Positions 1,818-58,162 of a stretch of DNA of 63,075 nucleotides are shown here, one piece after another. Made by a program: the position numbers and the translations under genes. Position 1 is the first letter of the stretch. Each line of letters opens with the position of its first letter. The stretch covers positions 1 to 63,075 of the forward strand of contig JAISXF010000032.1 in NCBI GenBank assembly GCA_031270845.1, written 5' to 3'. The notes under the pieces are model-generated. The model did not search any database and was not told the DNA's origin. It worked only from the letters and a program-made list of their open reading frames with translations. This DNA is from Prevotellaceae bacterium. GTDB taxonomy: Bacteria; Bacteroidota; Bacteroidia; Bacteroidales; UBA932.

Positions 1818-1852
1818 AATTACGAATTACGAATTATGAATTACGAAAAACG
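1818..1852. repeat. Heptamer array AATTACG x5 (variants AATTATG, AAAAACG)
   Basis: Read directly: aattacg aattacg aattatg aattacg aaaaacg. It sits immediately upstream of the prfB -7 box. Confidence 0.95.
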
Positions 1853-1955
1853 GATTTTTTTTTATATTTTATGAAAAATGAAAGCGATTTTATATTTTAA
1901 AAAAATAAAAATCCGAACTCCGAACCGCTACGTTTCTTTTCAAAATCTCAAAATT

Positions 1956-2396
1956 GGACTTCAAAACCCCGCGCGCCGAGTTCCGAGTTCCCAAATTGGA
2001 GTTAATAACTCCAAACTTGGAGTTAATAACTCCGAAATTGGAGTTAATAACTCCTAAATTGGAGTTCGGAACTCCGAAATTGGAGTTAATAACTCCTAAA
2101 TTGGAGTTAAAAGCCTCGCGCGCCGAGTTCCGAACTCCAAATTCCGAGTTCGGAACTCCAAATTCCGAGTTCGGAACTCCAAATTCCGAGTTCGGAACTC
2201 CAAATTCCGAGTTCGGAACACCAAATTCCGAGTTCGGAACACCAAATTCCGAGTTCCGAACTCCAAATTCCGAGTTCGGAACACCAAATTCCGAGTTCGG
2301 AACTCCAAATTCCGAGTTGAAAGCTCCGTGCTCCGATATAAAAACGCGGCGCGCCGACCTCAAAGGTCAGCGCGCCGATATAAAAGGCTCTCGCCT
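1956..2396. repeat. 441-bp tandem array held in one 21-bp register (21 units) with palindromic cores
   Basis: Sub-array A (1998-2102) is GGAGTTAATAACTCCnAAnTT x5, with 7-bp arms GGAGTTA/TAACTCC. Sub-array B (2124-2312) is CGAGTTCGGAACTCCAAATTC x9, with 6-bp arms GAGTTC/GAACTC. Punctuation units ending in GCGCGC lie at 1956, 2103, 2334 and 2355. The register was checked by hand at each unit start. Confidence 0.95.
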
Positions 2397-2412
2397 GCTT
2401 TTTCTTACCTAT

Positions 2413-2482
2413 CGTTCATCGTTCATACTTCATCGTTCATCGTTCATACTTCATACTTCATACTTCATACTTCATCGTTCGG
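2413..2482. repeat. Heptamer array, 10 units (CGTTCAT / ACTTCAT)
   Basis: cgttcat x2, acttcat, cgttcat x2, acttcat x4, cgttcgg. It ends 16 nt before the ubiX stop codon. ACTTCAT is the reverse complement of the ATGAAGT units at 3105-3139. Confidence 0.95.
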
Positions 2483-2497
2483 TACGTTGAACGACCA

Positions 2498-3058
2498 TTA
2501 ATCATTCCATCGTTTTCCGCTGTGCGGCAGTCCGGCGAGCTGCAGTACGCGATCGACGACCGTGGCGGCGGCCTCTTCGACGGTCGCAGGATGGTGGTAG
2601 AACGACGGAGAGGCGGGGCAGATAATCCCGCCGGCGTCGGTCAGGTGCAGCATGTTTTGGAGGTGGATGCGATTGAGGGGCGCCTCGCGCGGCACGACAA
2701 TCAGCCGCCGGCGTTCTTTGAGCATCACGTCGGCGGCGCGCGCGAGCAGGTCGCTGCCCAGTCCGTTGGCTATCCGCGCCAGCGTGCCCATGCTGCACGG
2801 GATGATGATCATCGTATCCGCCGCGGCGGAGCCGGAGGCAAACGGCGCATGGAAGTCGTCATTCGCGTAGCGGCGGAAAAGACCGGCATACGACCGGAAA
2901 CAGGCGTCGCCCAGCTCGTGCCGGAAGACCTCTTCGCCACAGGCCGAAAACACGACGGCTACCTCGACCTCCGCCGGCATCCGCCGGAGGGCATCCATGA
3001 GCTGGCGGGCATAAATCGCCCCGCTCGCGCCGGTAATAGCGACTGTAATATGATGCAT
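2498..3058 (-). CDS. ubiX: Flavin prenyltransferase UbiX
   Basis: 186 aa. MHHITVAITGASGAIYA..MIIIPCSMGTLARIANG..RRRLIVVPREAPLN..ICPASPSFY is typical of the UbiX/Pad1 family. Confidence 0.88.
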   Translation of the reverse strand: MHHITVAITGASGAIYARQLMDALRRMPAEVEVAVVFSACGEEVFRHELGDACFRSYAGLFRRYANDDFHAPFASGSAAADTMIIIPCSMGTLARIANGLGSDLLARAADVMLKERRRLIVVPREAPLNRIHLQNMLHLTDAGGIICPASPSFYHHPATVEEAAATVVDRVLQLAGLPHSGKRWND

Positions 3059-3084
3059 ACTGTATTATTTAGTATAATTTCCCG

Positions 3085-3092
3085 CAAAGATA
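3085..3092 (-). promoter_or_regulatory. -7 box TATCTTTG upstream of ubiX
   Basis: The plus strand reads caaagata. It is 27 nt upstream of the ubiX ATG (3058). The heptamer array begins 13 bp further upstream. Confidence 0.5.
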
Positions 3093-3104
3093 CTATTTTT
3101 AACG

Positions 3105-3322
3105 ATGAAGTATGAAGTATGAAGTATGAAGTATGAAGTATGAACTATGAACTATGAACTATGAACTATGAACGGCGACAAGCGAGCAACCTTATATATT
3201 GTTTGTATCCGTCGGCAGGCCGTTCATAGTTCATAGTTCATACTTCATACTTCATACTTCATACTTCATACTTCATACTTCATACTTCATAGTTCATAGT
3301 TCATAGTTCATAGTTCATAGTT
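3105..3322. repeat. Head-to-head heptamer arrays forming a ~218-bp potential cruciform: (ATGAAGT)5(ATGAACT)5 - 46-bp spacer - (AGTTCAT)3(ACTTCAT)7(AGTTCAT)4
   Basis: The left arm is 3105-3174 and the right arm is 3221-3322. The unit types of the two arms are exact reverse complements. The structure lies between the divergent ubiX and ruvA promoters. Confidence 0.95.
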
Positions 3323-3367
3323 AAAATCGCAAAGCGTAATTTAATTTATCATCTAAAGAAAAAATGC

Positions 3368-6900: not shown

Positions 6901-9900
6901 GTTTGAAAACGGCTTCAGTAGCCCCGAAGACTCCACGCGCTTTATTTCGACTGCCTGGGGACGCGTACCCAAAGACCCGCAAATCACCCTCACCTTCGAC
7001 AACGATTACGAAAAACGCCAATACCAGGATATAGGCTACGACGGCCTGAACGACGACTACGAAGGCCGGCACTTTGCCGCGTATGTCAATCAGATGCGAG
7101 GGCTTATTTCCAACACCGAAGCGCGTACCCGTATGGAAAACGACCCGTCGAGCGATAACTACCGCTATTATTTAGACCCCGTTTACGATAACACGCAGGC
7201 CGACATCCTCGAGCGCTACAAGTACTACAACGGTACCGACGGCAACTCCCGGCCATCCGCCGGAGGCGACAATACAATGGGCATGATCAATCCCGACATG
7301 GAAGACATGAACCGCGATTATACAATGAACGAAACGGAAAGCTACTACCAGTACGAGTTGAACCTGACGCCGGACAACATGCGTATCGGGAGCAACTACA
7401 TTACGGACATCCGCGAAGTAACCAAAAATGAATTTGACGGCGTGAAGACCGTCCGGTTTTACCAGATAAAAATACCGATTAGCGAAGGCGCAGCCATTGG
7501 CGGCATCTCCGATTTCAAATCCATCCGGTTTATCCGAATGTTTATGCGCGGGTTTGCTGACACAACGGTTTTCCGCTTTGCCACCCTGCAATTAGTGCGC
7601 GGCGAATGGCGGCGCTACAACCAGTCGATGATCGACGGGCAGGAAATACTGGCGCAACCCGAAATGTCGAACGCCGGCTTTGACATATCGGCCGTGAATA
7701 TCGAAGAAAATTCGCACCGGACGCCGGTCAACTATATCCTCCCGCCGGACGCCACGCGCCAGATCGACCCGGGACAGTACCAGGTGCGGCAACTGAACGA
7801 GCAGGCCATGGAATTGCGCATAAGCGACCTGGCCGACGGCGACGCACGGGCGGCCTACAAAAACGTAACCTTCGATTTCCGCAAATACCGCCGGCTAATT
7901 ATGGACGTACACGCCGAAGGAGTACCCGGAAAACCATTGCGCGATAACGACGTGTCGATATTTATCCGCATCGGGAGCGACTACCGTTATAACTACTACG
8001 AATACGAAGTGCCGCTGGTGCTTACGCCGCCGGGATTTTATACCGACAACCAGCGGGAAGCGGTGTGGCGCCCCGAAAATAAGGTCGATATTAATCTCGA
8101 CATCCTCACCGACGCCAAACTGGAACGCAACGAATATGTCCGCCGCTTCGGAGGCTCAATTGCCACCGTGTATGAAAAGGCGGACGGCCGCAACAAAGTG
8201 CGCATCGCCGGCAATCCCAACCTCGGGCAGGTGCGGACGGTGATGATAGGCGTGCGCAACGCATCGAAACAGCGCTCGCCGAACGACGACGGGCTGGAGA
8301 AATCGGTTATTGTCTGGGTAAACGAATTGCGTCTGACAAATTTCAACGAATCGAGCGGCTTTGCCGCCAATGCCCGCATTGCCGCCAAATTAGCCGACTT
8401 CGGGAATGTGAGCCTGTCGGGTAACATGCAGACCCCGAACTTCGGTGGACTGGAATCGAAAATGAACGAGCGGTCGATGGATTATATATATCAGTACGAC
8501 GTCATCACCAACTTTGAATTGGGAATGTTCTTCCCCAAAAGCATCGGCGTGCGGCTACCGCTGTTCTTCGGCTTTTCCGAAAACTTTACCAACCCGCAGT
8601 ACTATCCGTTCGACCAGGATGTGCTGTACGACCAGGCCATGCGCGGCATGACCTCCTACGAGCGCGACTCCATCAAGCGGCTGACGCAGGACTATACGCG
8701 CCGCCTGTCGTTCAATGCCACCAACGTGCGGGTATTTGCCAATGCCTCAAACCCGGCGGTGTTCAGCCTCTCGAACCTGACCACAAGCTTTGCCTATACC
8801 CAGGTCTTTGCCCGCAACCCGCGTACCGACCACAAATTGGACGAAACCTACCATTTCAATTTGGGCTATGCTTACAACGTCCAGCCGTTTTATGTCGAAC
8901 CCTTTAAAAAAATCCCCTGGCTACGCTCGCCCTGGCTGCAGCTGATTCGCGAGTTCAACTTTAACCCCTTCCCGAACCAGTTTGCATTTAACGCCGATAT
9001 CTCGCGCACCTACCGCGAAATCCAGTACCGGAGTATCATGGCGCCCGAAGTCGTAATCCCGCCTACTGTATCGAAAGATTTCCTGTGGGACAACAACTAT
9101 TCGTTTGTGTGGGACATCACCCGCTCGATAAAAATCGATTTTATTGCCACCAACCGCGCCCGCATCGACGAGCCGGAAGGCATTATCAATAAACGAATCG
9201 ACCCCGAAGGATACCGCCACTGGCACGATTCGACATGGACAAACTTCTGGAACTTCGGACGCAATGTATTCTACAATCAACAAATCAATGCGCAGTGGAT
9301 GGTGCCGATAAATAAAATCCCGCTGCTCTCGTGGCTCTCGTCGAGTGTGCAGTACAACGCCGGCTACACATGGGAAGCCGCACCGGTACTGAACGACACA
9401 ACCTACGACCCGGGCAATACCATCTCCAACTTCCGAAACATGAGCATCAATGGCAGCATGTCTTTTGAAAGCATTTATAATAAGGTGCCATTCCTGCGCA
9501 ATATCAACAACGAATTTTCGACCCGCGGCCCCACACGTCCCCCCGAAATGGTAAACAAAACCTATGAAAGCCCGAAAATGCGCTTCACCGCCAACCGCCG
9601 CCGGACAATCCGGCATAATTTGAAAACTGCCGATATCCGTACGCAGATTTTCGACGCCAACGGGAAAGAAATACAGGGGCAAGTCGATGTTATCAATAAT
9701 AACACCGTTGCCGTAACCCTGGACGATGACGCTAACGCCGTGATGGTAAAAGTAACCGGCCGCGTACCGAAAAAACAGAACCCCGTCAGCGTGGCCGCCA
9801 AAACGCTGCTGCGCGTAGCGATGATGTTGCGTAACATATCGGTCAGCTACAGCAGCAACGACGCCTCAACACTGCCCGGCTTCAAACCCTACGCACAGAT

Positions 9901-11170
9901 CATGGGATGGGGACAGACCAATAACGTCTGGGCGCCCGGATGGCCGTTCGTATTAGGCTATCAGGATGAAAATTTTCTGAACCATGCACGGGAACAACAA
10001 TGGCTCTCGACCGACACGACGATTATCAATCCCTATATCATGACCCACATGTCGATGCTCAATATCCGCGCCACGCTCGAGCCCTGGCCTGCGCTGAAAA
10101 TCGACCTGGGATTTTCCCGCAACTATTCGGAAAATAATTCGTGGTACAATGTGGCTTCCTCCACCAATCAACGCCAAACAACCGGCAATTTCAGCATCTC
10201 GACTATCAGCATTGCTACCGCTTTCGAAAACCCGACCACCGGAAACGATTTTGCCTCCAAAGCCTTTGACAATTTCCTGCAGGCGCGTACCACCATCGCC
10301 GGCCGGCAAGCCAGAGCACGGGCGGCGCTGGGACAGGAAAACTACGACCCTCACCGGATAATCGACGGCTACCCCGACGGCTTCGGTTCGCTCTCGCAAG
10401 AAGTCTTGATCCCGGCCTTCCTGGCAGCCTATACCGGCCGCTCGCCGGAGAAGGTTACCCTGTCGAATTTCCCGATTATCCCCTTGCCATCGTGGCAAAT
10501 TACCTACAACTGGCAGCCGAAAAAGAAATCGCTGCAGGACCTTATTACGTCGCTCACCGTGATGTCCAAATATTCATCCATGTATGCCATTAACTCCTAC
10601 ACTTACAACCAGGCCTACACGCTGTCCGACATCGTGGACGGGCGGAATATGCTGGGCGATTTTATCCCGCTCAACGATATTCTGCTGGCCAGCATCCGCG
10701 AAGAACTGACGCCGATTTATATCGACATCGGCTGGATGAACAACCTTTCGACACGGTTCGAGTGGGCGCGTAACCGGACACTGTCGCTGAGCCTGTCGAA
10801 TAACCAAATTATGGAAAACCGGCGGACAACCTATATAATAGGTGCAGGTTATACATTCCGCGAAATGCCGTTAATTTTCCGCTTTGCAGCAGGCAGTTCG
10901 CGCAATGTAAAAACAACGTTGCGCGTCCGTGCCGACCTCTCCATTCAGGACGAAATGACGATTCTGCGGAAAATCGTCCTCGAAGACGACGCCATCCCGC
11001 AGGTATCAAGCGGGCAGCGCAATATAAGTATCAAACTGTCGGCCGACTATACCGTGAGCAGCAACCTCACCCTGCGGCTCTTCTTCGACCGGATGGTCAA
11101 CAATCCCTACGTGTCGTCGATTGCGACGGCCAATACCAATGCTGGTTTAAGTATCAATTTATCACTATAA
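3989..11170 (+). CDS. sprA: Type IX secretion system translocon / gliding-motility protein SprA
   Basis: 2393 aa with an N-terminal signal peptide (LLCCSLAPARAQ). The giant beta-barrel-like composition and the position directly downstream of ruvA match the conserved ruvA-sprA synteny in Bacteroidota. Confidence 0.85.
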   Translation: MKGLYRFFGICLLCCSLAPARAQSSLSPETPVVEYDPVTHNYLYYHAYDTRRAMPYRVLSSEEYRREQFSQTLRDGWAQQRSDGQGRLGTTGDNLIPSSFRIGVNNDAFAKIFGSSEIVINPQMSVNLTFGGKWNYANNPIIAERYRTAFNFDFLAQMQFNITGNIGDRLKLNFNYNTEATFDFETNLKIEYAGNEDDIIQKIEAGNIAFPLDGSLITGSQSLFGGKVDLRFGKLDVALVASVQRAQSKTVELVGGGQTSVFEINADQYDANRHFFLSHYFKENYDKWLGRLPLVLSGINIKRIEVWVTNKSGRFEETRNFVAFIDDGERDRIYNTTLFNGSGNGLPSSKNSNNLYTVINKDNIRQTQDVTAYLTGMGMRSGSDFEKVENARKLSSTDYSVNTQLGYISLNAALNADEILAVAYEYEAFGVTYKVGELSTDGIMSPAMLTLKLLKGTSFSPKFPTWDLMMKNVYAIDAYRINRDDFILDIMYENAEAGTALPYISEGAIAEKPLLRVLNLDNLNMQNDASPDGMFDFVEGITVLSSRGRIIFPVREPFGRYLEQKIGDPVLAEKYVYKELYDSTLTKAQSYAEKNKFRLVGSYQSEGGDEIRLDAMNVPQGSVVVTAGGVKLIEGVDYEVNYIGGTVRILNRSYLESGVPLKVSLENRELFNLQTKTLLGTRLKYTFNDRFYIGGTLLHLSERPLTQKVNWGEEPISNTIWGLNTAFRTDVPWLTKAVDALPFIETKANSSLTFDAEFAHFLPGHASAIGSNGAAFLDDFEGSQSTLDLRSHAAWSLASVPQGQSPQFPDGDLTGLTTGFNRALLSWFYIYPDFVRNTSYTPGYMRADPFRFQRNWYVCEIQINDLFPDREEIIGSPTNLQVLNMTYYPDERGPYNYSTNARPDGRLLTPESRWAGVQRPLPITDFETANYDYIECWLMDPFVYNSNATGGKLYFNLGSISEDVLKDGLKSFENGFSSPEDSTRFISTAWGRVPKDPQITLTFDNDYEKRQYQDIGYDGLNDDYEGRHFAAYVNQMRGLISNTEARTRMENDPSSDNYRYYLDPVYDNTQADILERYKYYNGTDGNSRPSAGGDNTMGMINPDMEDMNRDYTMNETESYYQYELNLTPDNMRIGSNYITDIREVTKNEFDGVKTVRFYQIKIPISEGAAIGGISDFKSIRFIRMFMRGFADTTVFRFATLQLVRGEWRRYNQSMIDGQEILAQPEMSNAGFDISAVNIEENSHRTPVNYILPPDATRQIDPGQYQVRQLNEQAMELRISDLADGDARAAYKNVTFDFRKYRRLIMDVHAEGVPGKPLRDNDVSIFIRIGSDYRYNYYEYEVPLVLTPPGFYTDNQREAVWRPENKVDINLDILTDAKLERNEYVRRFGGSIATVYEKADGRNKVRIAGNPNLGQVRTVMIGVRNASKQRSPNDDGLEKSVIVWVNELRLTNFNESSGFAANARIAAKLADFGNVSLSGNMQTPNFGGLESKMNERSMDYIYQYDVITNFELGMFFPKSIGVRLPLFFGFSENFTNPQYYPFDQDVLYDQAMRGMTSYERDSIKRLTQDYTRRLSFNATNVRVFANASNPAVFSLSNLTTSFAYTQVFARNPRTDHKLDETYHFNLGYAYNVQPFYVEPFKKIPWLRSPWLQLIREFNFNPFPNQFAFNADISRTYREIQYRSIMAPEVVIPPTVSKDFLWDNNYSFVWDITRSIKIDFIATNRARIDEPEGIINKRIDPEGYRHWHDSTWTNFWNFGRNVFYNQQINAQWMVPINKIPLLSWLSSSVQYNAGYTWEAAPVLNDTTYDPGNTISNFRNMSINGSMSFESIYNKVPFLRNINNEFSTRGPTRPPEMVNKTYESPKMRFTANRRRTIRHNLKTADIRTQIFDANGKEIQGQVDVINNNTVAVTLDDDANAVMVKVTGRVPKKQNPVSVAAKTLLRVAMMLRNISVSYSSNDASTLPGFKPYAQIMGWGQTNNVWAPGWPFVLGYQDENFLNHAREQQWLSTDTTIINPYIMTHMSMLNIRATLEPWPALKIDLGFSRNYSENNSWYNVASSTNQRQTTGNFSISTISIATAFENPTTGNDFASKAFDNFLQARTTIAGRQARARAALGQENYDPHRIIDGYPDGFGSLSQEVLIPAFLAAYTGRSPEKVTLSNFPIIPLPSWQITYNWQPKKKSLQDLITSLTVMSKYSSMYAINSYTYNQAYTLSDIVDGRNMLGDFIPLNDILLASIREELTPIYIDIGWMNNLSTRFEWARNRTLSLSLSNNQIMENRRTTYIIGAGYTFREMPLIFRFAAGSSRNVKTTLRVRADLSIQDEMTILRKIVLEDDAIPQVSSGQRNISIKLSADYTVSSNLTLRLFFDRMVNNPYVSSIATANTNAGLSINLSL

Positions 11171-15037: not shown

Positions 15038-15054
15038 TTTTACTATCTTTCAAT

Positions 15055-15252
15055 ATGTTAATTACCGAAAATGAAAGCCGCCGTGATGCCGTCCGCGCTG
15101 CCGCGCAACAGATGCTGGCTGCGGCGCGTACCGCTCCCAAAGGCAAAGGCCTTGATACGCTTGCGCTGGGGCTGCTGGGCGCCGACGTGCCGGTAGCGTT
15201 CGGTATTCCGTTAAGCTGCAGCAGCAAAAGCCCGTTTTTCGACCGGAAATAA
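15055..15252 (+). pseudogene. Probable 5' remnant of a DUF2148-type ferredoxin-domain protein gene
   Basis: The 65-aa ORF MLITENESRRDAVRAAAQQMLAAARTAPKGKGLDTL.. resembles the N-terminus of ~180-aa DUF2148 proteins as I recall them. The reading frame stops early and is followed by the 21-bp palindromic array. Confidence 0.35.
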
Positions 15253-15336
15253 GCGGGACGCGAACCGCCGTATCGTATTTTTTTAGAATAATGGAATGAT
15301 GTTCTGTATGCGGGTCATGTACCCGCGTCCGCGTCG

Positions 15337-15504
15337 CTCGGACTCGAGTCCGCGCGGCTCGGACCCGAGTCCGCAAGGCTCGGACTCGAGTCCGCGTGGC
15401 CCGGACTCGAGTCCGCGTGGCTCGGACTCGAGTCCGCGTCGCTCGGACTCGAGTCCGCGAGGCTCGGACTCGAGTCCGCGTGGCTCGGACACGTGTCCGC
15501 GGGT
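15337..15504. repeat. 21-bp tandem array x8, each unit containing the perfect 14-bp palindrome CGGACTCGAGTCCG
   Basis: CTCGG unit starts fall at 15337, 15358, 15379, 15400, 15421, 15442, 15463 and 15484. The 7-nt spacers are variable (CGnnGCT). The last unit is the variant palindrome CGGACACGTGTCCG. A degenerate hairpin GCGGGTCATGTACCCGC lies just upstream. Confidence 0.95.
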
Positions 15505-17856: not shown

Positions 17857-17861
17857 CAGAA

Positions 17862-39661: not shown

Positions 39662-39687
39662 AAGGATTTCGGTTCGTAATTAAAAAG

Positions 39688-45171: not shown

Positions 45172-47487
45172 TCAGCAGGGTTGTATAGGCGTTGTGGGAT
45201 GATTATAACAAGAATTAGTCCAGCCTTTACCGGTATAGATACTTGGAGTGCAGGTGGAAGATCCAGGGTTGTTCTCGTATTCTATGCAATTACTATTATT
45301 GCTGGGCAGCGAATTGAATAAAGCATCCAGCGCCGTAGCGGAAAGGTTATTATCACGACAATACAGATAATATAACAAGACACAGTTCGACACGTCTAAT
45401 TCCGTCAATGAATTATTGTCACATATCAAACCATGTAGCGCGGTACAGTTCGACACATCTAATGTTATCAATTCACTGTTAACACATTCCAAAAGAACTA
45501 GCGCGGTACAGCTCGACACGTCTAATTCCGTCAATGAAGTGTTTTGACACACTAAACTAATTAGCGCGGTACAGCCCGTCACGTCCAATGTCGTCAGGAC
45601 ATAACTATTGGTAAAAAGCAAAGAAACAAGCTTGGTACAGTTCGATACATCTAAAGTTACCAAGCCTGCGCAACACCTGAGAAGCAAATACTCCAGTGCG
45701 GGGTGGTTCGACAGATCCAAAGACGTCAAGTAAGGACAATCGTAGATATACAAACGAGTTAGTGTAGGACAGTCATTCAAATTCAGGGCAGTAAAGTTGT
45801 TTCCATAAAAAATATTGAATTCAGTCAAAGAGGATGCCGTCGCGGTAGCAGTGTACGTCCCGTTGCCGACAGGATATGTATGCGGATAGTTAATCCTAGA
45901 ACCGGCAGCGGGCGTAAAGATTTCTACCGGGCTTCCATCGCCCCAGTCTATCGCCATATACCCGCCGTCAATTATAGCGTCGAAGGAAAAAGACGTTCCA
46001 TTGCTCTCCACCGTAAAGCTAAACGTTTTTGAAACGCTCAGCACGCCCTGCGCTACGTCGAAGGCGCAGCCGGTGGCATCGGTAGCGATAACGGTGTAGG
46101 TATAGGCCGAGGCGGCGGCAAGAGCTTCGGTGGTAGCCGTGCCGCTAATTGTAAGGGTCGGGCTGGCCCAGGAGCCGGTTATGCCATTGGGCAGGCCGGT
46201 TACGCTAACGCTAACCGCGCCGGGAATACTGTAAACAATGGGAGACAGGAGTGTATCGACAGCTATCGTCTGGGTTTCGCTGCCGGAAATCAGCTCCGCT
46301 ACCGGCGCTTCAGATGCCACCCCTACCGTCCAGCTCACGCTATCCGCGCAGCCGTGCTCGGTAAGCACCCGCGCCCATACGGTAACGCTTCCCGAGTCGG
46401 GTATCGGAAGGGAATAGGTATTCGAGGTACTGTAAACACACGTGTCATTATTCAAATCACAGTAAAACTCCGTCGCTATATTATTCCCCGACGTGTACGG
46501 ATTATGCCCGCAGGCGGTACAGCTGTGCGTGAAGCAGTACGAGCTGCCGGAATTGTTTTCAACCGTCAGCGTAACCGTGCTGCCCGCGCAGGCCGAGTCG
46601 GGCGGATTAACAAACGCCGCCACCGCCGCCGGATAAACCGTTACCGACGCCGGCGTACCCGCCACCACACAGCCCCCGCCATTGCTCACCTGTATGGTAC
46701 AAACCGTATCCTGCGAAGGGGTTATTTTAGCCGTAACGCCCGAAATGGCGCTCACAATCCCCGTCGCCCCGCCATCAAAACTGTACACCGAAGCATTAAC
46801 CGCCACGGCGATGAGCGTAACGGTATCGCCGGCGCAGATGGTATCAGGCTGCGCAATAAAAGACGTAATCGCCGGCGTGGGAGGCGCCAACCCCGGACAG
46901 CCGGTGGCATCGGTAAGGGCATCGATACAGCCGGAAAACTGCGTCCCGGCAACTGTCGTCGAACCATTAATAATAAAGGGAGGCGTGCCGTGCAAATCAT
47001 ACGTGCCGTTATTCTCCGTAGCATTTGGCGGATAGTCCGACGCATACGTACACCAGTTAAAACGGTCGCCGGCCGATAGCCCGTCGAGCGCGACGGTTAC
47101 CGTCGAACTGAAGGGCGCCGTCGTCCCGCGCAGGTAGAAGCCGCGCGTGTTGCCGGCCACATGTATCACCGTGCCGGAGGTAGCCACCGCCGGCGATACG
47201 AGCGTCGCAGGCGTCCACGCCCCCGTAAGCCCGTTCGGCTGCACGGTCTGGTAATCGACAAAGAGCCACACCGAGTCAAGGTGCGTGATGCCGTCGGGGT
47301 CGGTATCCCAGAAGACACGGAAGGAAACCGTCGGCGGCGTGGCGGCATAGTCGGCGCTAATCTGCGCCACCCGCACCACGCTCTGCCCCTGTGCCGTGGC
47401 GAAGGACAGACATAAGAAGGACAGACACAAGACGGATAGACGTAAGACGGATAGACGTGAGACGGTGGTTAAAAATAGCGGCTTCAT
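45172..47487 (-). CDS. Secreted Cys-rich Ig-like repeat protein with a C-terminal leucine-rich-repeat (BspA-like) domain
   Basis: 771 aa from ATG 47487 (MKPLFLTTVSRLSVLRLSVLCLSFLCLSFATAQG). The C-terminal third is a ~23-aa LRR series (LTELDVSNCTALVLLECVNSELITLDVSNCTALHGLICDNNSL..). The longer track ORF (to 47679) reads through the heptamer array and overlaps the neighbouring gene. Confidence 0.75.
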   Translation of the reverse strand: MKPLFLTTVSRLSVLRLSVLCLSFLCLSFATAQGQSVVRVAQISADYAATPPTVSFRVFWDTDPDGITHLDSVWLFVDYQTVQPNGLTGAWTPATLVSPAVATSGTVIHVAGNTRGFYLRGTTAPFSSTVTVALDGLSAGDRFNWCTYASDYPPNATENNGTYDLHGTPPFIINGSTTVAGTQFSGCIDALTDATGCPGLAPPTPAITSFIAQPDTICAGDTVTLIAVAVNASVYSFDGGATGIVSAISGVTAKITPSQDTVCTIQVSNGGGCVVAGTPASVTVYPAAVAAFVNPPDSACAGSTVTLTVENNSGSSYCFTHSCTACGHNPYTSGNNIATEFYCDLNNDTCVYSTSNTYSLPIPDSGSVTVWARVLTEHGCADSVSWTVGVASEAPVAELISGSETQTIAVDTLLSPIVYSIPGAVSVSVTGLPNGITGSWASPTLTISGTATTEALAAASAYTYTVIATDATGCAFDVAQGVLSVSKTFSFTVESNGTSFSFDAIIDGGYMAIDWGDGSPVEIFTPAAGSRINYPHTYPVGNGTYTATATASSLTEFNIFYGNNFTALNLNDCPTLTRLYIYDCPYLTSLDLSNHPALEYLLLRCCAGLVTLDVSNCTKLVSLLFTNSYVLTTLDVTGCTALISLVCQNTSLTELDVSSCTALVLLECVNSELITLDVSNCTALHGLICDNNSLTELDVSNCVLLYYLYCRDNNLSATALDALFNSLPSNNSNCIEYENNPGSSTCTPSIYTGKGWTNSCYNHPTTPIQPC
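47401..47465. repeat. 15-bp tandem repeat x4 inside the signal-peptide codons of the LRR gene
   Basis: gaaggacagacataa / gaaggacagacacaa / gacggatagacgtaa / gacggatagacgtga. On the coding strand this gives RLSVL RLSVL CLSFL CLSF. Confidence 0.9.
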
Positions 47488-47520: not shown

Positions 47521-47564
47521 CCTGCGGCGGATGCAATATATGCGTTTACTCGCTTGTCGTAATT
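47518..47564 (-). repeat. Conserved ~47-bp array-junction module AATTACGACAAGCGAGTAAACGCATATATTGCATCCGCCGCAGGCAA
   Basis: Hand alignment to 3168-3222: the blocks CGACAAGCGAG (11/11), ATATATTG (8/8), ATCCG (5/5) and CAGGC are shared. AATTACGACAAGCG (14/14) is also at 35769-35782. GCATCCGCCGCAGGCAA (17/17) is also at 19799-19815. Confidence 0.85.
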
Positions 47565-47599
47565 CGTAATTCGTAATTCGTAATTCGTAATTCGTAATT
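47558..47599. repeat. Heptamer array CGTAATT x6 (= AATTACG on the minus strand)
   Basis: Six perfect units fill the gap between the stop of 47601..48257 and the conserved module. Confidence 0.95.
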
Positions 47600-48257: not shown

Positions 48258-48327
48258 AGTATAAAAATTTTAAATGAAACATAATGAATGAATTAATTTA
48301 TAATTGTAAAAATAATTTCGGACAGGA

Positions 48328-48474
48328 CGGAACTTTCTCTCCAAGGAGCGGAACTTTCTCTCCAAGGAGCGGAACTTTCTCTCCAAGGAGCGGAACTTTC
48401 TCTCCAAGGAGCGGAAGTTTCTCTCCAAGGAGCGGAAGTTTCTCTCCAAGGAGCGGAAGCAGGAAATATGATAT
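48328..48474. repeat. 21-bp tandem array x7 (CGGAACTTTCTCTCCAAGGAG; the last three units have CGGAAGT)
   Basis: Unit starts are at 48328, 48349, 48370, 48391, 48412, 48433 and 48454, with a partial copy at 48475. The core CTCC-AA-GGAG is a small palindrome. Confidence 0.95.
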
Positions 48475-48518
48475 ATTATTTTTTAAAATCATGCGCGCAA
48501 AGATACGACTTTTTTTTG

Positions 48519-48526
48519 AAAAAATT
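48519..48526 (-). promoter_or_regulatory. -7 box TATCTTTG pointing left, through the 21-bp array toward the 218-aa gene
   Basis: It is part of a perfect 19-bp inverted repeat, CAAAGATACGACTTTTTTT (48519-48537) / AAAAAAAGTCGTATCTTTG (48601-48619). Confidence 0.45.
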
Positions 48527-48611
48527 TTTTTTACGCAATTTTTTTTTTATCCGGAACGTTTTTTTAAAAAAATAGTGAGAAAAAAAGTCGTATCTTTGTG
48601 GCGAAAAAAAT

Positions 48612-48619
48612 TTAATGGG
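48612..48619 (+). promoter_or_regulatory. -7 box TATCTTTG pointing right, toward the R-M genes
   Basis: This is the right arm of the same 19-bp inverted repeat, 93 nt before ATG 48712. Confidence 0.45.
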
Positions 48620-48711
48620 GATAAATAGTAAAAACAAAAGGATAACGACAACTAAAGCCCTGAAAAACGAACAAAATTGGAATTGATAAGGCAAAGTTAA
48701 AAATAGCTATT

Positions 48712-49383
48712 ATGCACAAAAGACCGCTCACAATAAAATCTCTAATCTCACTTGCAAAAACATTTTGCGAACAAGAATCAAAAATGCCAAATACAGAACT
48801 ATTTGGCGTAACTGATGGCAAAGCCGTAGGCACATATATTGAACATAAATTCAAAGATTTTTTGCTCGCAACGTGCGATTTGCAAGTGGGTAGTTCGGCA
48901 AGCGGCATTGATTTGCCTTCCTCAAAAATCAACACAGATATTAAGGTTACTTCTATTAAGCAACCGCAGTCGTCCTGTCCATTCAAAAATGCACAGCAAA
49001 AAATTTTCGGCTTGGGTTACAATTTGTTGGTTTTTGTGTACGACAAACGCGATAATGCAAAAGATAAAACGGCGTTATTGGATTTTGTCAGTTGTTCGTT
49101 TATAGAAAAAGAGCGGACTGCCGATTATCAAACTACGACAACAATTTTACAAATGCTCGCAAACAAGGCAAATGCAGACGATATTTTTGCTTTTCTGAAT
49201 GACCGCAACATTCCTGCCGATGAAATTACATTAATGAATATGGCGGAACAAATTTTAAAAAAACCGCCAAAAGCTGGTTATCTTACTATTTCCAACGCTT
49301 TGCAATGGAGATTACAATACAGCAGGATTGTAACATTAAAAGATAAAATTTCAGGAATTACCAAAATCGTAGATAAGTATTGA
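48712..49383 (+). CDS. Candidate type II restriction endonuclease
   Basis: 223 aa, AT-rich codon usage. It ends 1 nt before the methyltransferase ATG. A possible PD-(D/E)xK arrangement is ..SGIDLP-x9-DIKVTS.. I recognise no specific family, so the call rests mainly on context. Confidence 0.5.
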   Translation: MHKRPLTIKSLISLAKTFCEQESKMPNTELFGVTDGKAVGTYIEHKFKDFLLATCDLQVGSSASGIDLPSSKINTDIKVTSIKQPQSSCPFKNAQQKIFGLGYNLLVFVYDKRDNAKDKTALLDFVSCSFIEKERTADYQTTTTILQMLANKANADDIFAFLNDRNIPADEITLMNMAEQILKKPPKAGYLTISNALQWRLQYSRIVTLKDKISGITKIVDKY

Positions 49384-49384
49384 T

Positions 49385-51031
49385 ATGGATTTTAGTGGTA
49401 TAGATATTAGCATCCCGTCGGTTTGTTTTTTTCAGGATAACGATAAATTGTCTTTCAAAGAAATAAACAATATTTTGAAAGGCAAAAGCGGTATTGTTGA
49501 TTTTTTTGAAAAAGAAGACGATTTTAAACAAATAAGAGAAACACTGATGAATAGCCAATCCATTGTTGCCGAAAGTCAAGTAGAATACGGCGATTATCAA
49601 ACCAATCAACAACTTACGCAATTGGTTTGCAACTATTTGTCAAACAAAAATATAAATCCTCAAATACTTATTGAGCCAACTTGCGGGAAGGGAAATTTTA
49701 TTTTGTCGGCAATTCAGACATTCAAAAATTTAGAACAGGTTTGGGGAATTGAAATACAAGAAAAATATTTGTGGCAATTAAAATTTTCATTACTTGAATA
49801 TTACCTAAAAAATCCACAGGCAAATAAACCTGAAATCCATTTATATCATTACGATGTATTTAATTTTGATTTTCAGAAGATTAAAGAACAAATAAGCGGG
49901 AAGGAGCTGTTGGTTATCGGCAATCCTCCGTGGGTAACTAACACAACACTTTCCTCTTTGAACTCAAAAAATTTACCTGAAAAGTCCAATTTCAAACAGG
50001 CAAAAGGTATAGACGCAATCACAGGCAAAGGCAATTTTGATATTGGCGAGTTTATTGCGTTGAAAATGTTGGATTTGTTTTCGAAAGAGAATGGTCATTT
50101 CGCATTTTTAATCAAAAATTCGGTCATCAAAAACATTGTTTTCGAGCAGAAACGCAACAATTACCCGATTGCCGACTTTGAAAAACATACGATTAACGCA
50201 CAAAAAGAATTTGGGGCGGCGGTTGACGCAAGTTTATTTGTCTGCAAATTCAATTCTACGCCTGAATTTACCGCAAAAGAATACAATTTTTATACTTCAC
50301 AAAAACGCACTGTGTTAGGTTGGGTGAATAACAAATTTGCTTCCGATATCGAAAAATACAAGAAATATCAGCACTTAGACGGTGTTTGCCCTTTCGAGTG
50401 GCGACAGGGCATTAAGCATGACTGCGCCAAAGTGATGGAGTTGGAACGTATCGACGGCGGTTTTCGCAATCAACTCGGAGAAGAATTTGAATTAGAGGAG
50501 GATCTAATATATGGTATTTTAAAAAGTTCCGATTTGAAAGCCGAAAGCATTGACACACCACGAAAATACACCATTGTAACACAGAAAAAAATCGGTGAAA
50601 ATACGGAAAAAGTTTTATCGAAATTACCAAAAACAAAAGAATATTTGCAAAAACACAAAGAATATTTTTCGCAAAGAAAATCAAGTATTTACAACGGGAA
50701 ACCTATGTTTTCGATATTTGGGATTGGCGATTATTCATTCAAACCTTACAAAGTTGCTATTTCAGGACTTTATAAACAAACGAAATTCACATTGGTAAAG
50801 CCAAGTGATACGGTTTTATTACTTGATGATACTTGCTATTTTATCGGCTTTGACAATCTCGAAGACGCCCAAACAGTACAAAATGAATTAAACAATTCCG
50901 AAATGCAGGAATTTATACAATCGTTTATGTTTACTGATGCCAAACGAGCGATTACAAAAGATTTGTTGATGCGAATTTATCTGAAAACGGCAATCGTGCC
51001 GGAAAGATATTCATGGAATTTATTTGGCTAA
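49385..51031 (+). CDS. N6-adenine DNA methyltransferase (gamma-type motif order, Eco57I/TaqI-like)
   Basis: 548 aa. The AdoMet motif I LIEPTCGKGNFIL precedes the catalytic motif IV LLVIGNPPWV (NPPW). The long C-terminal region is consistent with a target-recognition domain. Confidence 0.8.
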   Translation: MDFSGIDISIPSVCFFQDNDKLSFKEINNILKGKSGIVDFFEKEDDFKQIRETLMNSQSIVAESQVEYGDYQTNQQLTQLVCNYLSNKNINPQILIEPTCGKGNFILSAIQTFKNLEQVWGIEIQEKYLWQLKFSLLEYYLKNPQANKPEIHLYHYDVFNFDFQKIKEQISGKELLVIGNPPWVTNTTLSSLNSKNLPEKSNFKQAKGIDAITGKGNFDIGEFIALKMLDLFSKENGHFAFLIKNSVIKNIVFEQKRNNYPIADFEKHTINAQKEFGAAVDASLFVCKFNSTPEFTAKEYNFYTSQKRTVLGWVNNKFASDIEKYKKYQHLDGVCPFEWRQGIKHDCAKVMELERIDGGFRNQLGEEFELEEDLIYGILKSSDLKAESIDTPRKYTIVTQKKIGENTEKVLSKLPKTKEYLQKHKEYFSQRKSSIYNGKPMFSIFGIGDYSFKPYKVAISGLYKQTKFTLVKPSDTVLLLDDTCYFIGFDNLEDAQTVQNELNNSEMQEFIQSFMFTDAKRAITKDLLMRIYLKTAIVPERYSWNLFG

Positions 51032-51232
51032 ACGGCGAGTAGTTATTGGAGCGCAGGATTGCCCCCGATTGTATATCGGCTTAACAACAATGGACAGATA
51101 AAAGACGACTACCGCCTTGACTTCATTAAACAGAAGAACGGCGTTGAAAGCAGGAACGGCGTTTTGCCGGGATTGAATTTGTTTAGCGAAGAAATAAGCA
51201 TCGCCTGCAACATCTGAACGCTGTTTTCCCCT

Positions 51233-55167: not shown

Positions 55168-55241
55168 TCCTCAGTAGCTCAGTTGGTTAGAGCATCTGAC
55201 TGTTAATCAGAGGGTCCCAGGTTCAAGTCCTGGCTGAGGAG
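55168..55241 (+). tRNA. tRNA-Asn (anticodon GTT)
   Basis: Hand-folded: acceptor TCCTCAG/CTGAGGA, D-arm GCTC-AGTTGGTTA-GAGC, anticodon stem TCTGA/TCAGA with loop CTGTTAA, T-arm CCAGG-TTCAAGT-CCTGG, discriminator G. 74 nt. Confidence 0.93.
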
Positions 55242-55320
55242 CTGTATCAAAAGAGTGTTGTTCTACTTTGTATGATATATATTTTTTTTGTAATGAAGCT
55301 TTTATGCTGAACATGTATTA

Positions 55321-55600: not shown

Positions 55601-55608
55601 TACCTTTG
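55601..55608 (+). promoter_or_regulatory. -7 box TACCTTTG, with TTTG 21 bp upstream (-33-like), for the efflux operon
   Basis: tgTACCTTTGtc. A TTTG lies at 55577-55580. The ATG is at 55700, giving a leader of about 90 nt. Confidence 0.55.
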
Positions 55609-55624
55609 TCGTGTTTTTAAAAAT

Positions 55625-55684
55625 GATAAAAATGGATGAAAATGGATGAGGGCAGATGAAAATGGATGAATATAGATAAACCAG
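55625..55684. repeat. 10-bp phased repeat GATGAAAATG x~6 in the efflux operon leader
   Basis: GAT(G/A)A starts fall at 55625, 55635, 55645, 55655, 55665 and 55675. Confidence 0.85.
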
Positions 55685-55699
55685 TAATACAATTATATT

Positions 55700-57043
55700 A
55701 TGAGAAAAAGGACAAAAATGAACGCTTGCCTGCTTTTGATGTGCCTGCCGGTTATCGGCTGGGGTCAAAGCAACGACACGCTGAAAGTAAACCTGCAACA
55801 GGCGCTCGATATTGCGCTTAGCGACAACCCTGCGATTGTCGTTGCCGACCTTGAACTGAAGCGCGTCGATTATTCCAGGCAAAATGCCTGGCTCGGGCTA
55901 CTGCCTTCGGTGAACGGTTCGGCACAGTACTCCAAATTCGTAGTCCCGGCGTCAATGAGTATGATGGGGCAGTTGATGGATTCCCCGACGGACTTCAACG
56001 CCTCGTTGGGCGTATCGCTGTCGCTGCCGCTGTTTGCGCCTGCGCTGTGGCGGTCGATCCAAATGACCGGCGTGGACATGCAATTAGCGGCCGAAAAAGC
56101 GCGTGCCTCGAAAATCACCCTGCGCAACGACGTAACGAAAGCCTACTATAGTATCCTGCTCGCGCAGGATTCGTACAAGTCCCTGCAGGATGGCTACGCG
56201 GTGGCGCGGCAGAACTACGAAGAAGCCCGGCAGCGCTTCGACCTGGGGCTGGCGGCGGAGTACGACTACATCTCCGCCGAAGTGCAAATGACCAATCTGC
56301 AGCCAACGCTGCTGCAGGTAGAAACCGGTATCGCACAAGCCAAAATGTATTTGAAAGTGCTGATGGGCGTCGATGGAGCTGTGCCGCTGGCCGTAACCGG
56401 CAGCCTTACCGAATTGGAAGCCGCCGTCGCCACCACCGGCGCACGCGACATTGCGCTCTCCGGCAATGCCGACCTGCGACAGTTGGACATACAGCAGCAA
56501 CTGTTGCGTAAATCGGTGCAGCTGCAGCAAACGCAGTGGATGCCCACGCTCGCCGCATTCGGCAACTATACTTACGCCGGCACGGGCAACCGTCAAACCA
56601 CCATCAACTTTGGCGGGATGCCGATAGCGGTTCCTGCAAGTACCGAATGGTTCGGGCAGGGGCTGATTGTCGGGCTGCAGTTGAACGTGCCGATATTTAA
56701 CGGCTCGTCGAACCTTATAAAGGTAAAGCAAATTAACCTGCAACAGCGGGAACTCGCCCTGCAGCGCGACTATTTAGAAAGTTCGCTGAGTGTGCAGGCG
56801 CGCACGGCGCTCGACAATATGGACAAGGCAGTGAAGCAAATGGAATCGGCAAAGAAGGGCGTCGCGCTGTCGGAGAAGGGGTACAGTATCTCTGCCAAAC
56901 GCTACGAAACCGGCGCAGGAACGATGCTCGAACTGCAAAGCGCCGCGCTGGCATTGACGCAGTCGCGCCTCTCCTACCATCAGGCTATTGCCGATTACCT
57001 GAACGCAAAGGCCGATTATGAGAAAATAGTGGGCAATGATTAA
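55700..57043 (+). CDS. TolC-family outer-membrane efflux protein
   Basis: 447 aa with a signal peptide and two OEP repeats. It is the first gene of a TolC-MFP-RND operon. Confidence 0.88.
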   Translation: MRKRTKMNACLLLMCLPVIGWGQSNDTLKVNLQQALDIALSDNPAIVVADLELKRVDYSRQNAWLGLLPSVNGSAQYSKFVVPASMSMMGQLMDSPTDFNASLGVSLSLPLFAPALWRSIQMTGVDMQLAAEKARASKITLRNDVTKAYYSILLAQDSYKSLQDGYAVARQNYEEARQRFDLGLAAEYDYISAEVQMTNLQPTLLQVETGIAQAKMYLKVLMGVDGAVPLAVTGSLTELEAAVATTGARDIALSGNADLRQLDIQQQLLRKSVQLQQTQWMPTLAAFGNYTYAGTGNRQTTINFGGMPIAVPASTEWFGQGLIVGLQLNVPIFNGSSNLIKVKQINLQQRELALQRDYLESSLSVQARTALDNMDKAVKQMESAKKGVALSEKGYSISAKRYETGAGTMLELQSAALALTQSRLSYHQAIADYLNAKADYEKIVGND

Positions 57044-57091
57044 TGGTTAATAATGGTTAGTAATATGTGTTTAAAAAAATAATAAGAAGAA

Positions 57092-58129
57092 ATGAAAACA
57101 ACAATTAAGAAAATGGTATCTGCATTCCCGCTTTTGGGAATAGGGAGTTTATTACTGCTGGCCGGATGCGGCGGCAGAACGGCGCCCGAACAAACCGCCA
57201 CCACAAAACAGGCAGTAGAAGTAAGGGTCGAAACAGTGCGCGAACAGTCCGTGGAGCAAATACAGGAGTACACCGGCGACATCATCGCGTACTCAAAAAA
57301 CATGATTGCCAGCCAAACCGCCATGCGTATTGAAAAAATACACGTGGAAGTGGGCGACTACGTGAAAGCCGGCCAGCTGTTAGTGCAGATGGAAGAAACC
57401 GCCTACCTGCAAGCAAAACTGCAACTCGAAAACCTGAAAACCGACTACAGCCGTTCGTCTGCGCTGCACGAAGCCGGAGGCCTGTCGAAGCAGGTCATCG
57501 ACCAGCTGAAAACGCAGTTGGACGTTACGGAAGAGTCGATAGCGAACCTGCATAAGAACACCTACCTGCTGTCGCCTATCGCGGGCATCGTTACTTCCCG
57601 CATGTTCGATAACGGCGACATGACCGGCGGGCAGCCCATCCTGCAAGTGCAGCAGCTGAAGCCGGTGAAAATAAAACTGAACATACAGGAGCAGTATTTC
57701 TCCGCCATCAAACCGAACATGCGGGCGACAATTAAGCTGGATGTGCTGCCCGGCGAGGAGTTCGCGGGCAAGGTGCATCTTGTGTACCCGACGGTGGACG
57801 CCGTGTCGCACACCGTTACTACGGAAATCGTGTGGGATAACAGCCGGCTGGAACTGCGCCCCGGCATGTTCGCCCGCGTGGTGCTGAACTTCGGCGATAA
57901 AACCCGCGTGGTTGTGCCCGACAGGGCAATCGTTAAACAACCCGGCACCGATGACCGTTACGTATATGTGCTGAAGGACAACCACACCGTCGCTTACACG
58001 AAGGTTGTGCTGGGGCAGCGTCTGGGCGACCGCTACGAAGTTCTGTCGGGATTGAACGACGGCGACCGCGTGGCAGTAGCCGGCATCAGTAAACTGATCA
58101 ACGGCACGGAAGTTTCCGTAGTGAAATAA
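57092..58129 (+). CDS. Efflux RND transporter periplasmic adaptor (membrane fusion protein) lipoprotein
   Basis: 345 aa. Lipobox LLLLAGC, then coiled-coil hairpin and beta-barrel segments typical of the HlyD/AcrA family. Confidence 0.88.
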   Translation: MKTTIKKMVSAFPLLGIGSLLLLAGCGGRTAPEQTATTKQAVEVRVETVREQSVEQIQEYTGDIIAYSKNMIASQTAMRIEKIHVEVGDYVKAGQLLVQMEETAYLQAKLQLENLKTDYSRSSALHEAGGLSKQVIDQLKTQLDVTEESIANLHKNTYLLSPIAGIVTSRMFDNGDMTGGQPILQVQQLKPVKIKLNIQEQYFSAIKPNMRATIKLDVLPGEEFAGKVHLVYPTVDAVSHTVTTEIVWDNSRLELRPGMFARVVLNFGDKTRVVVPDRAIVKQPGTDDRYVYVLKDNHTVAYTKVVLGQRLGDRYEVLSGLNDGDRVAVAGISKLINGTEVSVVK

Positions 58130-58134
58130 TAACG

Positions 58135-58162
58135 TTCAACTTTCAATTTTCAACTTTCAATT
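58135..58162 (+). repeat. 14-bp (2x7) repeat TCAACTTTCAATTT / TCAACTTTCAATTA abutting the RND pump ATG
   Basis: Read directly. It is the reverse-complement relative of the AGTTGAAAGTTG repeats at 47491-47520. Confidence 0.9.

Follow-up and report, generated by a model that had tools for sequence, protein, structure and literature searches.

Why should the gene boundaries of one bacterial genome carry tandem arrays that share a period while their units differ from locus to locus? The question is raised by a 63,075-bp contig of an uncultured Bacteroidales, analysed over its whole length and referred to as the window, in which units of 7 or 21 bp are repeated head-to-tail in many intergenic gaps. 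The preference of some bacterial genomes for heptanucleotide repeats has remained unexplained since the short tandemly repeated repetitive (STRR) sequences of cyanobacteria and the long simple sequence repeats (LSSRs) were described. With a probability of roughly 0.6, we consider the arrays of the window to be non-coding simple sequence repeats (SSRs) and minisatellites, an extreme and lineage-specific case of the heptanucleotide-dominated LSSR phenomenon that is produced by slippage and strand switching.

A period of seven in non-coding DNA

We searched the window with Tandem Repeats Finder (TRF) and, independently, by a lag-match scan (score of at least 14, periods 2–69), and placed the arrays on a gene map built from open reading frames (ORFs) and Pfam matches. 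TRF densities and period histograms count arrays with a score of at least 40 and at least 2.5 copies. The two methods recover all arrays listed in a sequence-only reading of the contig, including five of 21 bp, and all of its 7-bp units (AATTACG, AAATTGA, AATTAGA, AATTAAA, AATTTCT = CTAATTT, AATTAGG = CCTAATT, AATTCAT = CATAATT and ACTTCAT/AGTTCAT/CGTTCAT). Lag-match runs occur only at periods 7, 14, 21, 28, 42 and 63, plus a single run at 15. After merging, the strict scan yields 17 arrays in 63 kb, 16 of them with a period of 7, 14, 21 or 42 (referred to as 7n) and one with a period of 15; 20 shuffles that preserve the local composition yield none. The TRF histogram of the window contains 11 arrays at period 7, seven at 21 and one at 42, with one array each at 10, 12 and 15. 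The same reading had proposed a genome-wide period histogram as its check, and over the window 7 and 21 are indeed in excess over other periods. Arrays outside the 7n rule are few: a 15-mer (47404–47465), a 30-mer (32943–33012) and a 10-mer (55620–55677), the last lying in a 10/20-bp repeat (AAAATGGATG, five copies, 55615–55677) upstream of a second tolC-like gene. Within genes the repeats have the periods 6 or 9, which is what coding DNA would lead one to expect. Intergenic DNA outside the arrays retains a small match excess at lags 7 and 21 (~2.7 standard deviations), which suggests decayed arrays.

All 16 strict 7n arrays lie outside genes or touch only their last codons. Non-coding DNA amounts to ~7.4 kb (12% of the window), of which arrays fill ~1.9 kb, about a quarter, at a density of about one array per 3–4 kb; 15–16 gaps bear such arrays, fewer than the 'at least 18' counted earlier. 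Short AT-rich heptamer arrays of 2.4–6 copies are located directly at gene ends, and seven arrays span a stop codon, in line with the placement at gene boundaries first described. In all seven the unit itself includes a stop triplet, and three heptamer units therefore supply a stop in every frame. Arrays occur in divergent, convergent and tandem gaps alike, with no fixed relation to promoters. The association with a −7 box (TAnnTTTG) that had been pointed out for prfB, ubiX and hutH is real, with distances of 8, 12 and 3 bp, but 15 genes have such a box and only these three show the arrangement.

Several arrays are spanned by stop-free ORFs and could in principle be coding. We rejected this hypothesis, as the ORFs running through arrays match no Pfam family and the copies do not vary at third codon positions. 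A 63-bp repeat at 45382–45596 was likewise rejected as part of the phenomenon, since it encodes a 21-aa leucine-rich repeat (LRR) with Pfam LRR matches in an 835-aa ORF. In this LRR protein gene (45172–47400, minus strand) the coding repeat length is a coincidental multiple of 21; the annotated start of the ORF, which traverses two non-coding arrays, is probably too far upstream. Searches of the window with Rfam and ARAGORN find only tRNA-Asp(GTC) (17782–17857) and tRNA-Asn(GTT) (55168–55242), and the arrays match no known RNA family at the Rfam gathering threshold. The gene content includes SprA, PorV, a type IX secretion system (T9SS) sorting domain and a SusC/SusD locus.

What the arrays have in common is their period, plus an AATT bias for the heptamers, and not a sequence. 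There are 18 distinct canonical heptamers in the window, and units of the AATTACG type return at just three to four loci (1818, 20304, 25138 and 47557); AATT is present in 11 of 23 heptamer arrays compared with 6.5% expected from composition. No 21-mer unit is found a second time in the window, even at four mismatches, so that the earlier description of one period with differing units holds. Neither a dispersed repeat family nor common flanks around the arrays were found in the 63 kb. Because the 21-mers differ at every locus, a sequence-specific binder, an iteron, a repetitive extragenic palindromic (REP) element and a MITE family (miniature inverted-repeat transposable elements) all lack support.

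Individual repeat classes were rejected on the following grounds: (i) for fixed-unit heptamer families (STRR1–3, GGGAATC, TAACTGA), not even doublets of the units are present in the window; (ii) for iterons, the units are locus-specific and none of the arrays has a Rep, DnaA or partition gene next to it on the Pfam map; (iii) for REP elements and bacterial interspersed mosaic elements (BIMEs), rejected for the window, no dispersed unit copies exist at up to four mismatches in 63 kb; (iv) for MITE minisatellites of the BrickBuilt type, also rejected for the window, units and flanks are not shared; (v) for CRISPR (clustered regularly interspaced short palindromic repeats) arrays, the copies are head-to-tail without spacers. 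The arrays do agree with long heptanucleotide SSRs, both in array length (11 TRF arrays of period 7, with up to 14.4 copies) and in their mainly intergenic placement, which applies to 16/16 strict 7n arrays.

The sequence-only reading had described an iteron-like geometry, on which a DNA-binding or nucleoid-associated protein would use the arrays as platforms. The 21-bp step does span two turns of the helix, palindromic cores occur in some of the units, the heptamers prefer the AATT core and three arrays abut a −7 box. We nevertheless regard such platforms as improbable: 21-mers that are unrelated between loci could not be read by one sequence-specific protein, a 7-bp spacing puts the heptamers out of helical phase, the vicinity of the arrays contains no rep, initiator or partition gene, and the positions of the arrays relative to genes and promoters are heterogeneous.

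Inverted copies, hairpins and the inventory of arrays

Inverted repetition is visible within single units and between whole arrays. In the 21-mer composed of CCGAGTT, CGGAACT and CCAAATT, 13/21 positions match at lag 7 and the second heptamer is the rotated reverse complement of the first; this unit is visibly a heptamer followed by its inverted copy and a spacer. The array at 2411–2480 is a 21-mer built of three heptamers (17/21 matches at lag 7). Two mirror array pairs in the window give rise to hairpins of 70–125 bp. The arms at 3105–3173 and 3222–3322 are reverse complements over 76 nt at 96%, rising to 100% over 55 nt, and the fold of 3095–3330 reaches −118 kcal/mol (z −19); for the two inverted 21-mer arrays (25195–25480) the corresponding values are −174 kcal/mol and z −19, and the region 15295–15520 folds with z −9. 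Both strands of the mirror arrays fold equally well and without G-U asymmetry at the RNA level, and the mirror symmetry is therefore a property of the DNA. The hairpin or cruciform potential follows from the sequence and may have local side effects. We further observe that ubiX and its promoter (2411–3173) are flanked by inverted heptamer arrays (2411–2480 versus 3105–3173) that are 91% complementary over 69 nt and separated by 621 nt; the pair could serve as a substrate for inversion via homologous recombination.

Palindromic cores had been attributed to most 21-bp units. They are present in part: three of seven 21-mers in the window are significant against shuffles and one is marginal, and among 13 units of 21–23 bp from the window and its relatives 5 reach P < 0.05 and 2 are marginal, where fewer than one is expected; about half of these units have no notable palindrome. 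The enrichment, together with the very strong folding of the three regions, raises the question of whether the arrays are structural cis-elements in which selection acts on structure and period and not on sequence, be it to absorb supercoils or provide insulation between transcription units, to boost terminators or, in the manner of REP elements, to stabilise mRNA 3′ ends. The terminator hairpin of ubiX (2377→2347, minus strand), stronger than any other terminator-like hairpin in the first 20 kb, is indeed built from in-register 21-bp units, and the gap upstream of hutH retains an array in three genomes despite unlike sequences. Arrays have no T-tracts, however, three or four of the long ones lie between divergent promoters, where no transcript ends, and a role in RNA is not reflected in any difference between the strands. 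The short AT-rich heptamer arrays could not form stable hairpins. Stem conservation as a sign of selection gives mixed evidence: in the array at 15327 all variation falls outside the stem, such that the loop varies and the stem is invariant, whereas palindrome arms carry uncompensated changes at 2123–2318 (AACTCC→AACACC in 3/9 copies) and in the relative L169 (ACCGC→ACCAC). Weighing these points, we consider selected structural elements unlikely, though with enough in their favour to be kept in view. Sequence variants are grouped in blocks inside the arrays. Table 1 lists the arrays with their units and contexts.

Table 1 Tandem arrays of the window, with heptamer arrays of human-gut Bacteroidales in the last row (positions refer to the window unless a locus is named)
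Position	Array (unit and copies)	Context	Source
1818–1847	(AATTACG) ×4.3	8 bp upstream of prfB (−) TAnnTTTG box	TRF
1955–2410	continuous 21-bp register, ~455 bp, 19 in-register copies, two main sub-families		TRF, repeat comparison
1997–2110	sub-block TGGAGTTAATAACTCCAAAT ×5.8	within 1955–2410 register	
2123–2318	sub-block CCGAGTTCGGAACTCCAAATT ×9.3	within 1955–2410 register	
2333–2395	in-register 21-bp units	build ubiX terminator hairpin (2377→2347, minus strand)	
2411–2480	(ATCGTTC/ATACTTC) ×10	directly downstream of ubiX; same unit family as 3222–3322	
3105–3173	(ATGAAGT/ATGAACT) ×9.7	12 bp upstream of ubiX −7 box; left arm of mirror pair	
3222–3322	(AGTTCAT/ACTTCAT) ×14.4	right arm of mirror pair; 45 bp upstream of ruvA −7 box	
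15016–15038	(ATAATTA) ×3.3	across stop codon of DUF6427 gene	
15327–15501	(GTCCGCGTGGCTCGGACTCGA) ×8.3	between convergent genes; unit with 7-bp inverted repeat	
19814–19839	(AATTTCT) ×3.7	across rpiB stop; in place of C-terminal sequence of relative L169	
20256–20327	(ATTGACG) ×4.7 + (ATTCCTA/ATTCGTA) ×3.4	fill porV–rpiB gap	
22192–22208	(ATTCATA) ×2.4	9 nt past asnS stop	
25135–25167	(AATTAAAAATTACG) ×2.1, 14-mer	3 bp upstream of hutH −7 box	
25212–25466	two mirror-image arrays of 21-mer ACTTCCGTAACACATGAGATG	hairpin of ~125 bp per arm	
32847–33012	42-bp unit ×2.6, then AGAC-rich 30-bp unit ×2.3	between divergent susC and response-regulator gene	
33054–33113	(TTATTTCCTTGAGGATTTATT) ×2.9		TRF
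35747–35772	(AAATTGA) ×3.7	across histidine-kinase stop codon	
36340–36387	(CCTGCAT) ×3.3 + (AATTCAT) ×2.6	at pdxJ stop	
39641–39663	(AATTAGA) ×3.3	across tolC-like stop, upstream of recO	
47404–47465	15-bp unit ×4.1, non-7n	shares gap with 47557–47599 array	
47557–47599	(TCGTAAT) ×6.1	one base past stop of 218-aa gene; unit of 1818–1847 on opposite strand	
48324–48458	(AGGAGCGGAACTTTCTCTCCA) ×6.5	between divergent genes; edge of low-GC island	
58131–58162	(AACTTTC) ×4.3	fills 33-bp hlyD–acrB gap	
61283–61301	(TAATAAT) ×2.9	at acrB stop; outside the range described earlier	
L120 438–488; L127 3651–3692; L129 3890–3910; L130 3892–3937; L132/L133/L139	CCACCGC/CTGTCCA-type heptamers, 3 to 7.3 copies	downstream of terminator-like hairpin	

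Some neighbouring genes deserve mention in their own right. The low-GC island at 48260–51050 (36% versus ~54%), which has a 21-bp array at its left edge, holds one gene with a weak match to an MmeI-type methyltransferase and two that belong to no Pfam family, and is possibly a horizontally acquired defence or restriction module. A 65-aa ORF (15055–15252, plus strand) just upstream of the 15327 array matches only the C-terminal 30 residues of DUF2148 and looks like a gene remnant. The prfB gene (690–1776, minus strand) is split in two frames with the canonical programmed +1 frameshift motif of release factor 2, CTTTGAC, at 1715–1709; the Pfam PCRF match in its downstream ORF begins at profile position 60.

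Origin in place and turnover among relatives

The RuvA cluster of the window has a single contig, and no second copy of the species turned up. Its nearest relatives (RuvA 62–86%, RpiB 66–80% identity) are metagenomic contigs and metagenome-assembled genomes (MAGs) labelled 'Prevotellaceae bacterium' at NCBI, and a RuvA scan of metagenomes returned six clade members (L086–L091), the remainder being human-gut Bacteroidales. We compared the window with (i) a clade sample of 17 non-redundant loci (220 kb) and (ii) a phylum-wide control of 80 loci from diverse Bacteroidota (1.15 Mb; UbiX relatives at ≤61% identity among the matches listed). By TRF, the density of 7-mers falls from 17.4 per 100 kb in the window to 7.7 in clade relatives and 3.2 in other Bacteroidota, and that of 21-mers from 11.1 to 1.8 and 0.17. 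Period 7 is the commonest also in the control (37 arrays versus 17 of period 8), and the window therefore exaggerates a general bias. Arrays of unrelated 21-bp units occur in four relatives (L083, ×9.6 at the contig end; L167, ×7.7; L169, ×15.2; L171, ×9.4). The 7n rule is not absolute in the clade, which also has one 23-mer (L176) and one 41-mer (L169).

Orthologous gaps were compared in the block hutH–asnS–T9SS protein–porV–rpiB, which is syntenic in L169, L171, L173, L176 and L177. At the C-terminal end of rpiB, GAAAAAATAGAACAGGGATGA of L169 corresponds to GAAAAATTAGAAATTAGAAATTAG, that is (AAATTAG)×3, in the window, which indicates that the array grew out of resident sequence. The porV–rpiB gap comprises 11–12 nt in L176 and L177 compared with ~75 nt of heptamers in the window. 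Comparison with the homologues shows that the rpiB ORF of the window begins with ~15 residues of array-derived extension. The 14-mer array upstream of hutH resembles the single-copy TTCGTTAAAAATTCG of L173. Beyond the asnS stop, (AATTAGA)×2 is found in L171 and L173 and (AATTATG)×2.4 in the window. Turnover is most extensive in the gap upstream of hutH, where the promoter is conserved and three unlike arrays are present: a mirrored 21-mer in the window, an unrelated 21-mer ×15 in L169, and 7-mers ×12.7 and ×10, partly inverted, in L173.

These comparisons show resident sequence that expanded and not insertions, which speaks against the possibility that the minisatellites are carried by a non-autonomous mobile element, for which the BrickBuilt MITE of Porphyromonas gingivalis (PMC4596501) offers a precedent within Bacteroidales. 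In the window no leader, tail or terminal inverted repeats are shared and every long unit is unique. A candidate element does exist among the relatives: in L173, the heptamer arrays upstream of hutH lie between the two arms of a GC-rich inverted repeat of 45 bp (…CCCCGCCAGCGGGGGACAGCC…; 176–222 / 621–665). This repeat recurs beside the 21/42-bp array of L167 (9906–9926), from the same sample, and is possibly MITE-like. It is absent from the window, and we hold a mobile carrier to be quite improbable there.

Copy-number change can be followed in human-gut Bacteroidales with identical flanks, where one orthologous locus has 3, 6, 6.6 or 7.3 heptamer copies and another has 4 versus 3. Heptamer arrays thus change copy number within Bacteroidales. 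Slipped-strand variation, which the first reading had listed among possible roles, is supported as such a possibility. A further step would be that the change switches expression of the neighbouring gene, making the arrays contingency loci for phase variation; SSR-dependent phase variation is established in other bacteria, as PMC12721329 indicates, and three arrays of the window abut promoters. These arrays, however, lie upstream of the −7 box and not between promoter elements, so that an added unit leaves the promoter-proximal sequence as it is, and the others considered here lie after or across stop codons, where stops in all three frames would leave the protein end unchanged. The neighbours are housekeeping genes (prfB, ubiX, ruvA, rpiB, asnS). 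Judged from the sequence, we put the probability of contingency loci very low.

Long perfect arrays are difficult to assemble, and L083 begins inside a 21-bp array. An assembly artefact is still very unlikely, since a single contig of 63 kb holds ~20 arrays of different units, the arms of the mirror pairs match imperfectly (80–96% complementary), unlike those of amplification chimeras, the 21-mer array of L171 is identical in the NCBI MAG and a separate Logan assembly, and similar arrays are present in long-read MAG contigs such as L058. Taken together with the coding hypothesis rejected above, it is the least probable of the explanations considered.

Two observations concern related architectures elsewhere. 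An unrelated Bacteroidetes MAG (L032) contains an inverted heptamer pair, GATTGCG ×8.7 (9728–9788) and AATCCGC ×5.4 (9888–9925), with the mirror architecture of 3105/3222 in the window. In L176 (9066–9380), the gap between pump and outer-membrane gene of a resistance-nodulation-division (RND) efflux operon holds (GAATGAT) ×6.6, a 23-bp array ×8.8 and (AAACAAT) ×2.7; the heptamers at the hlyD–acrB and acrB-end junctions of the window are their counterpart.

Our preferred reading, SSRs and minisatellites that expand in place, would proceed as follows. Replication slippage, strongly favouring steps of 7 nt, would expand short local proto-repeats, and periods of 14, 21 and 42 would arise partly as higher-order units of diverged heptamers. 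Template switching would add inverted copies at every scale, from a heptamer with its own reverse complement in a 21-mer to palindromic 21-mers and mirror arrays. Selection would clear arrays wherever a change in copy number matters, and the survivors would mark places where change costs nothing: between a terminator and the next promoter (1955–2410), between divergent promoters (3105–3322, 32847–33113 and 48324–48458), between convergent genes (15327–15501), and across stop codons where the unit supplies a stop in all frames. A slippage origin, with the 7-nt preference ascribed to the DNA segment held by the polymerase, was put forward by Mrazek et al. (2007), as relayed in PMC4679880 and PMC4692102.

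Several observations weigh against this reading. The AATT-core preference is not predicted by a purely neutral model. The units at 15327, 25233, 33061 and 48331, four of the six main 21-mers, have no internal 7-nt similarity, and a derivation of 21 bp from three diverged heptamers therefore applies to part of the arrays only; the recurrence of 21 bp with unrelated sequences in five genomes is not accounted for by plain slippage. The excess of palindromic cores and the invariant stem at 15327 point in the same direction. The AATTAGA doublet kept between L171 and L173 indicates that short arrays are not always fast-evolving, and the copy-number polymorphism of heptamers was observed in other Bacteroidales; in this genome copy-number instability is presumed.

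In E. coli, 3′ exonucleases keep template-switch mutations at quasi-palindromes in check, and SbcCD does so for long palindromes. A more speculative reading would be that the clade possesses a molecular 'ruler' by which intergenic repeats, whatever their sequence, expand in phase with 7 and above all 21 bp. It would be either a peculiarity of replisome or repair (e.g. loss or alteration of an exonuclease or SbcCD-type activity that normally holds down slippage, template switching and long palindromes) or a structure- or AATT-specific binding protein, and the palindromic and mirror arrays would serve as cruciform insulators that absorb supercoils between transcription units. We consider this distinctly unlikely, but if true it would provide a tractable handle on the 7-nt preference of bacterial SSRs.

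Relation to known repeat systems

With ~25% of its intergenic DNA in arrays, the contig, and less so its relatives, is an unusually dense case. The options for a mechanism are narrowed by a 7n rule that reaches unrelated 21-bp units, by inverted copies at all scales and by a density gradient from window to clade to phylum; as an unusually clean and extreme example it could make the question 'why seven?' testable. In practice, such arrays break short-read assemblies, yield spurious ORFs and N-terminal extensions (e.g. rpiB) and can mislead annotation.

The sequence-only reading named the cyanobacterial STRR heptamers as the only comparable described system it knew of and none in Bacteroidota. 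The likeness to STRR is borne out, whereas the exclusivity is not, given the LSSRs (PMC4679880, PMC4692102) and arrays in five Bacteroidetes genomes (PMC4679880). Over-representation of heptanucleotide SSRs across bacteria goes back to Mrazek et al. (2007), as cited in PMC4679880 and PMC4692102. In these accounts, LSSRs (5–11-nt units; Mrazek, Guo & Shah 2007) are head-to-tail arrays far above chance expectation that favour 7 nt and are mostly intergenic, with many unit sequences, a proposed slippage origin and a patchy phylogenetic distribution, pronounced in some genomes and faint in their close relatives. The survey, as relayed there, covers units of 1–11 nt only, whereas in the window arrays of 21 bp (and 14/42 bp) are as prominent as 7-mers, often without heptamer similarity, palindromic units and mirror arrays are frequent and the density reaches about one array per 3–4 kb.

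STRR and the G-rich heptamers of Nostoc and Xanthomonas (PMC4692102) share with the window intergenic heptamers at many loci, variation in length and sequence between close relatives, and occasional inverted pairs (noted in Xanthomonas). They differ in using a few fixed units (GGGAATC, GGGGAYT, STRR1–3) at many loci, none of which is repeated in the window, where units are diverse with an AATT-core bias and the host is an uncultured Bacteroidales. MacGregor (2015; PMC4679880) described arrays of heptamers for Flexibacter, Paludibacter, Gramella, Aequorivita and Elizabethkingia; close relatives have shorter counterparts of these gaps without repeats, and contigs break off within arrays. TAACTGA and other heptamer arrays of Beggiatoaceae, Cyanobacteria and these five Bacteroidetes (PMC4679880) include intergenic arrays of Bacteroidetes beside start or stop codons; TAACTGA is not repeated in the window, whose arrays have no consistent orientation or start-codon distance, and 21-bp arrays do not appear in PMC4679880.

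BrickBuilt of P. gingivalis (PMC4596501) resembles the arrays as a spacer-less intergenic minisatellite of Bacteroidales with a ~21–23-nt unit and predicted secondary structure, but uses a single 23-nt unit at 19 loci, complete with leader and tail subunits and bounded by inverted repeats, whereas each locus of the window has its own unit and no common flanks. REP/BIME elements and plasmid iterons likewise place palindromic units or ~20-bp direct repeats in intergenic DNA, each however as one conserved sequence read by a dedicated protein (RAYT, IHF or gyrase, or Rep), unlike the arrays here. Our literature search for Bacteroidales heptamers and 21-bp arrays returned no account of dominant unrelated 21-bp units, frequent palindromic units or mirror arrays, AATT bias, or such density in an uncultured Bacteroidales clade. 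With these features of its own, the array phenomenon is to be grouped with prokaryotic long heptanucleotide SSRs and cyanobacterial repeats of the STRR type, and is not a new system.

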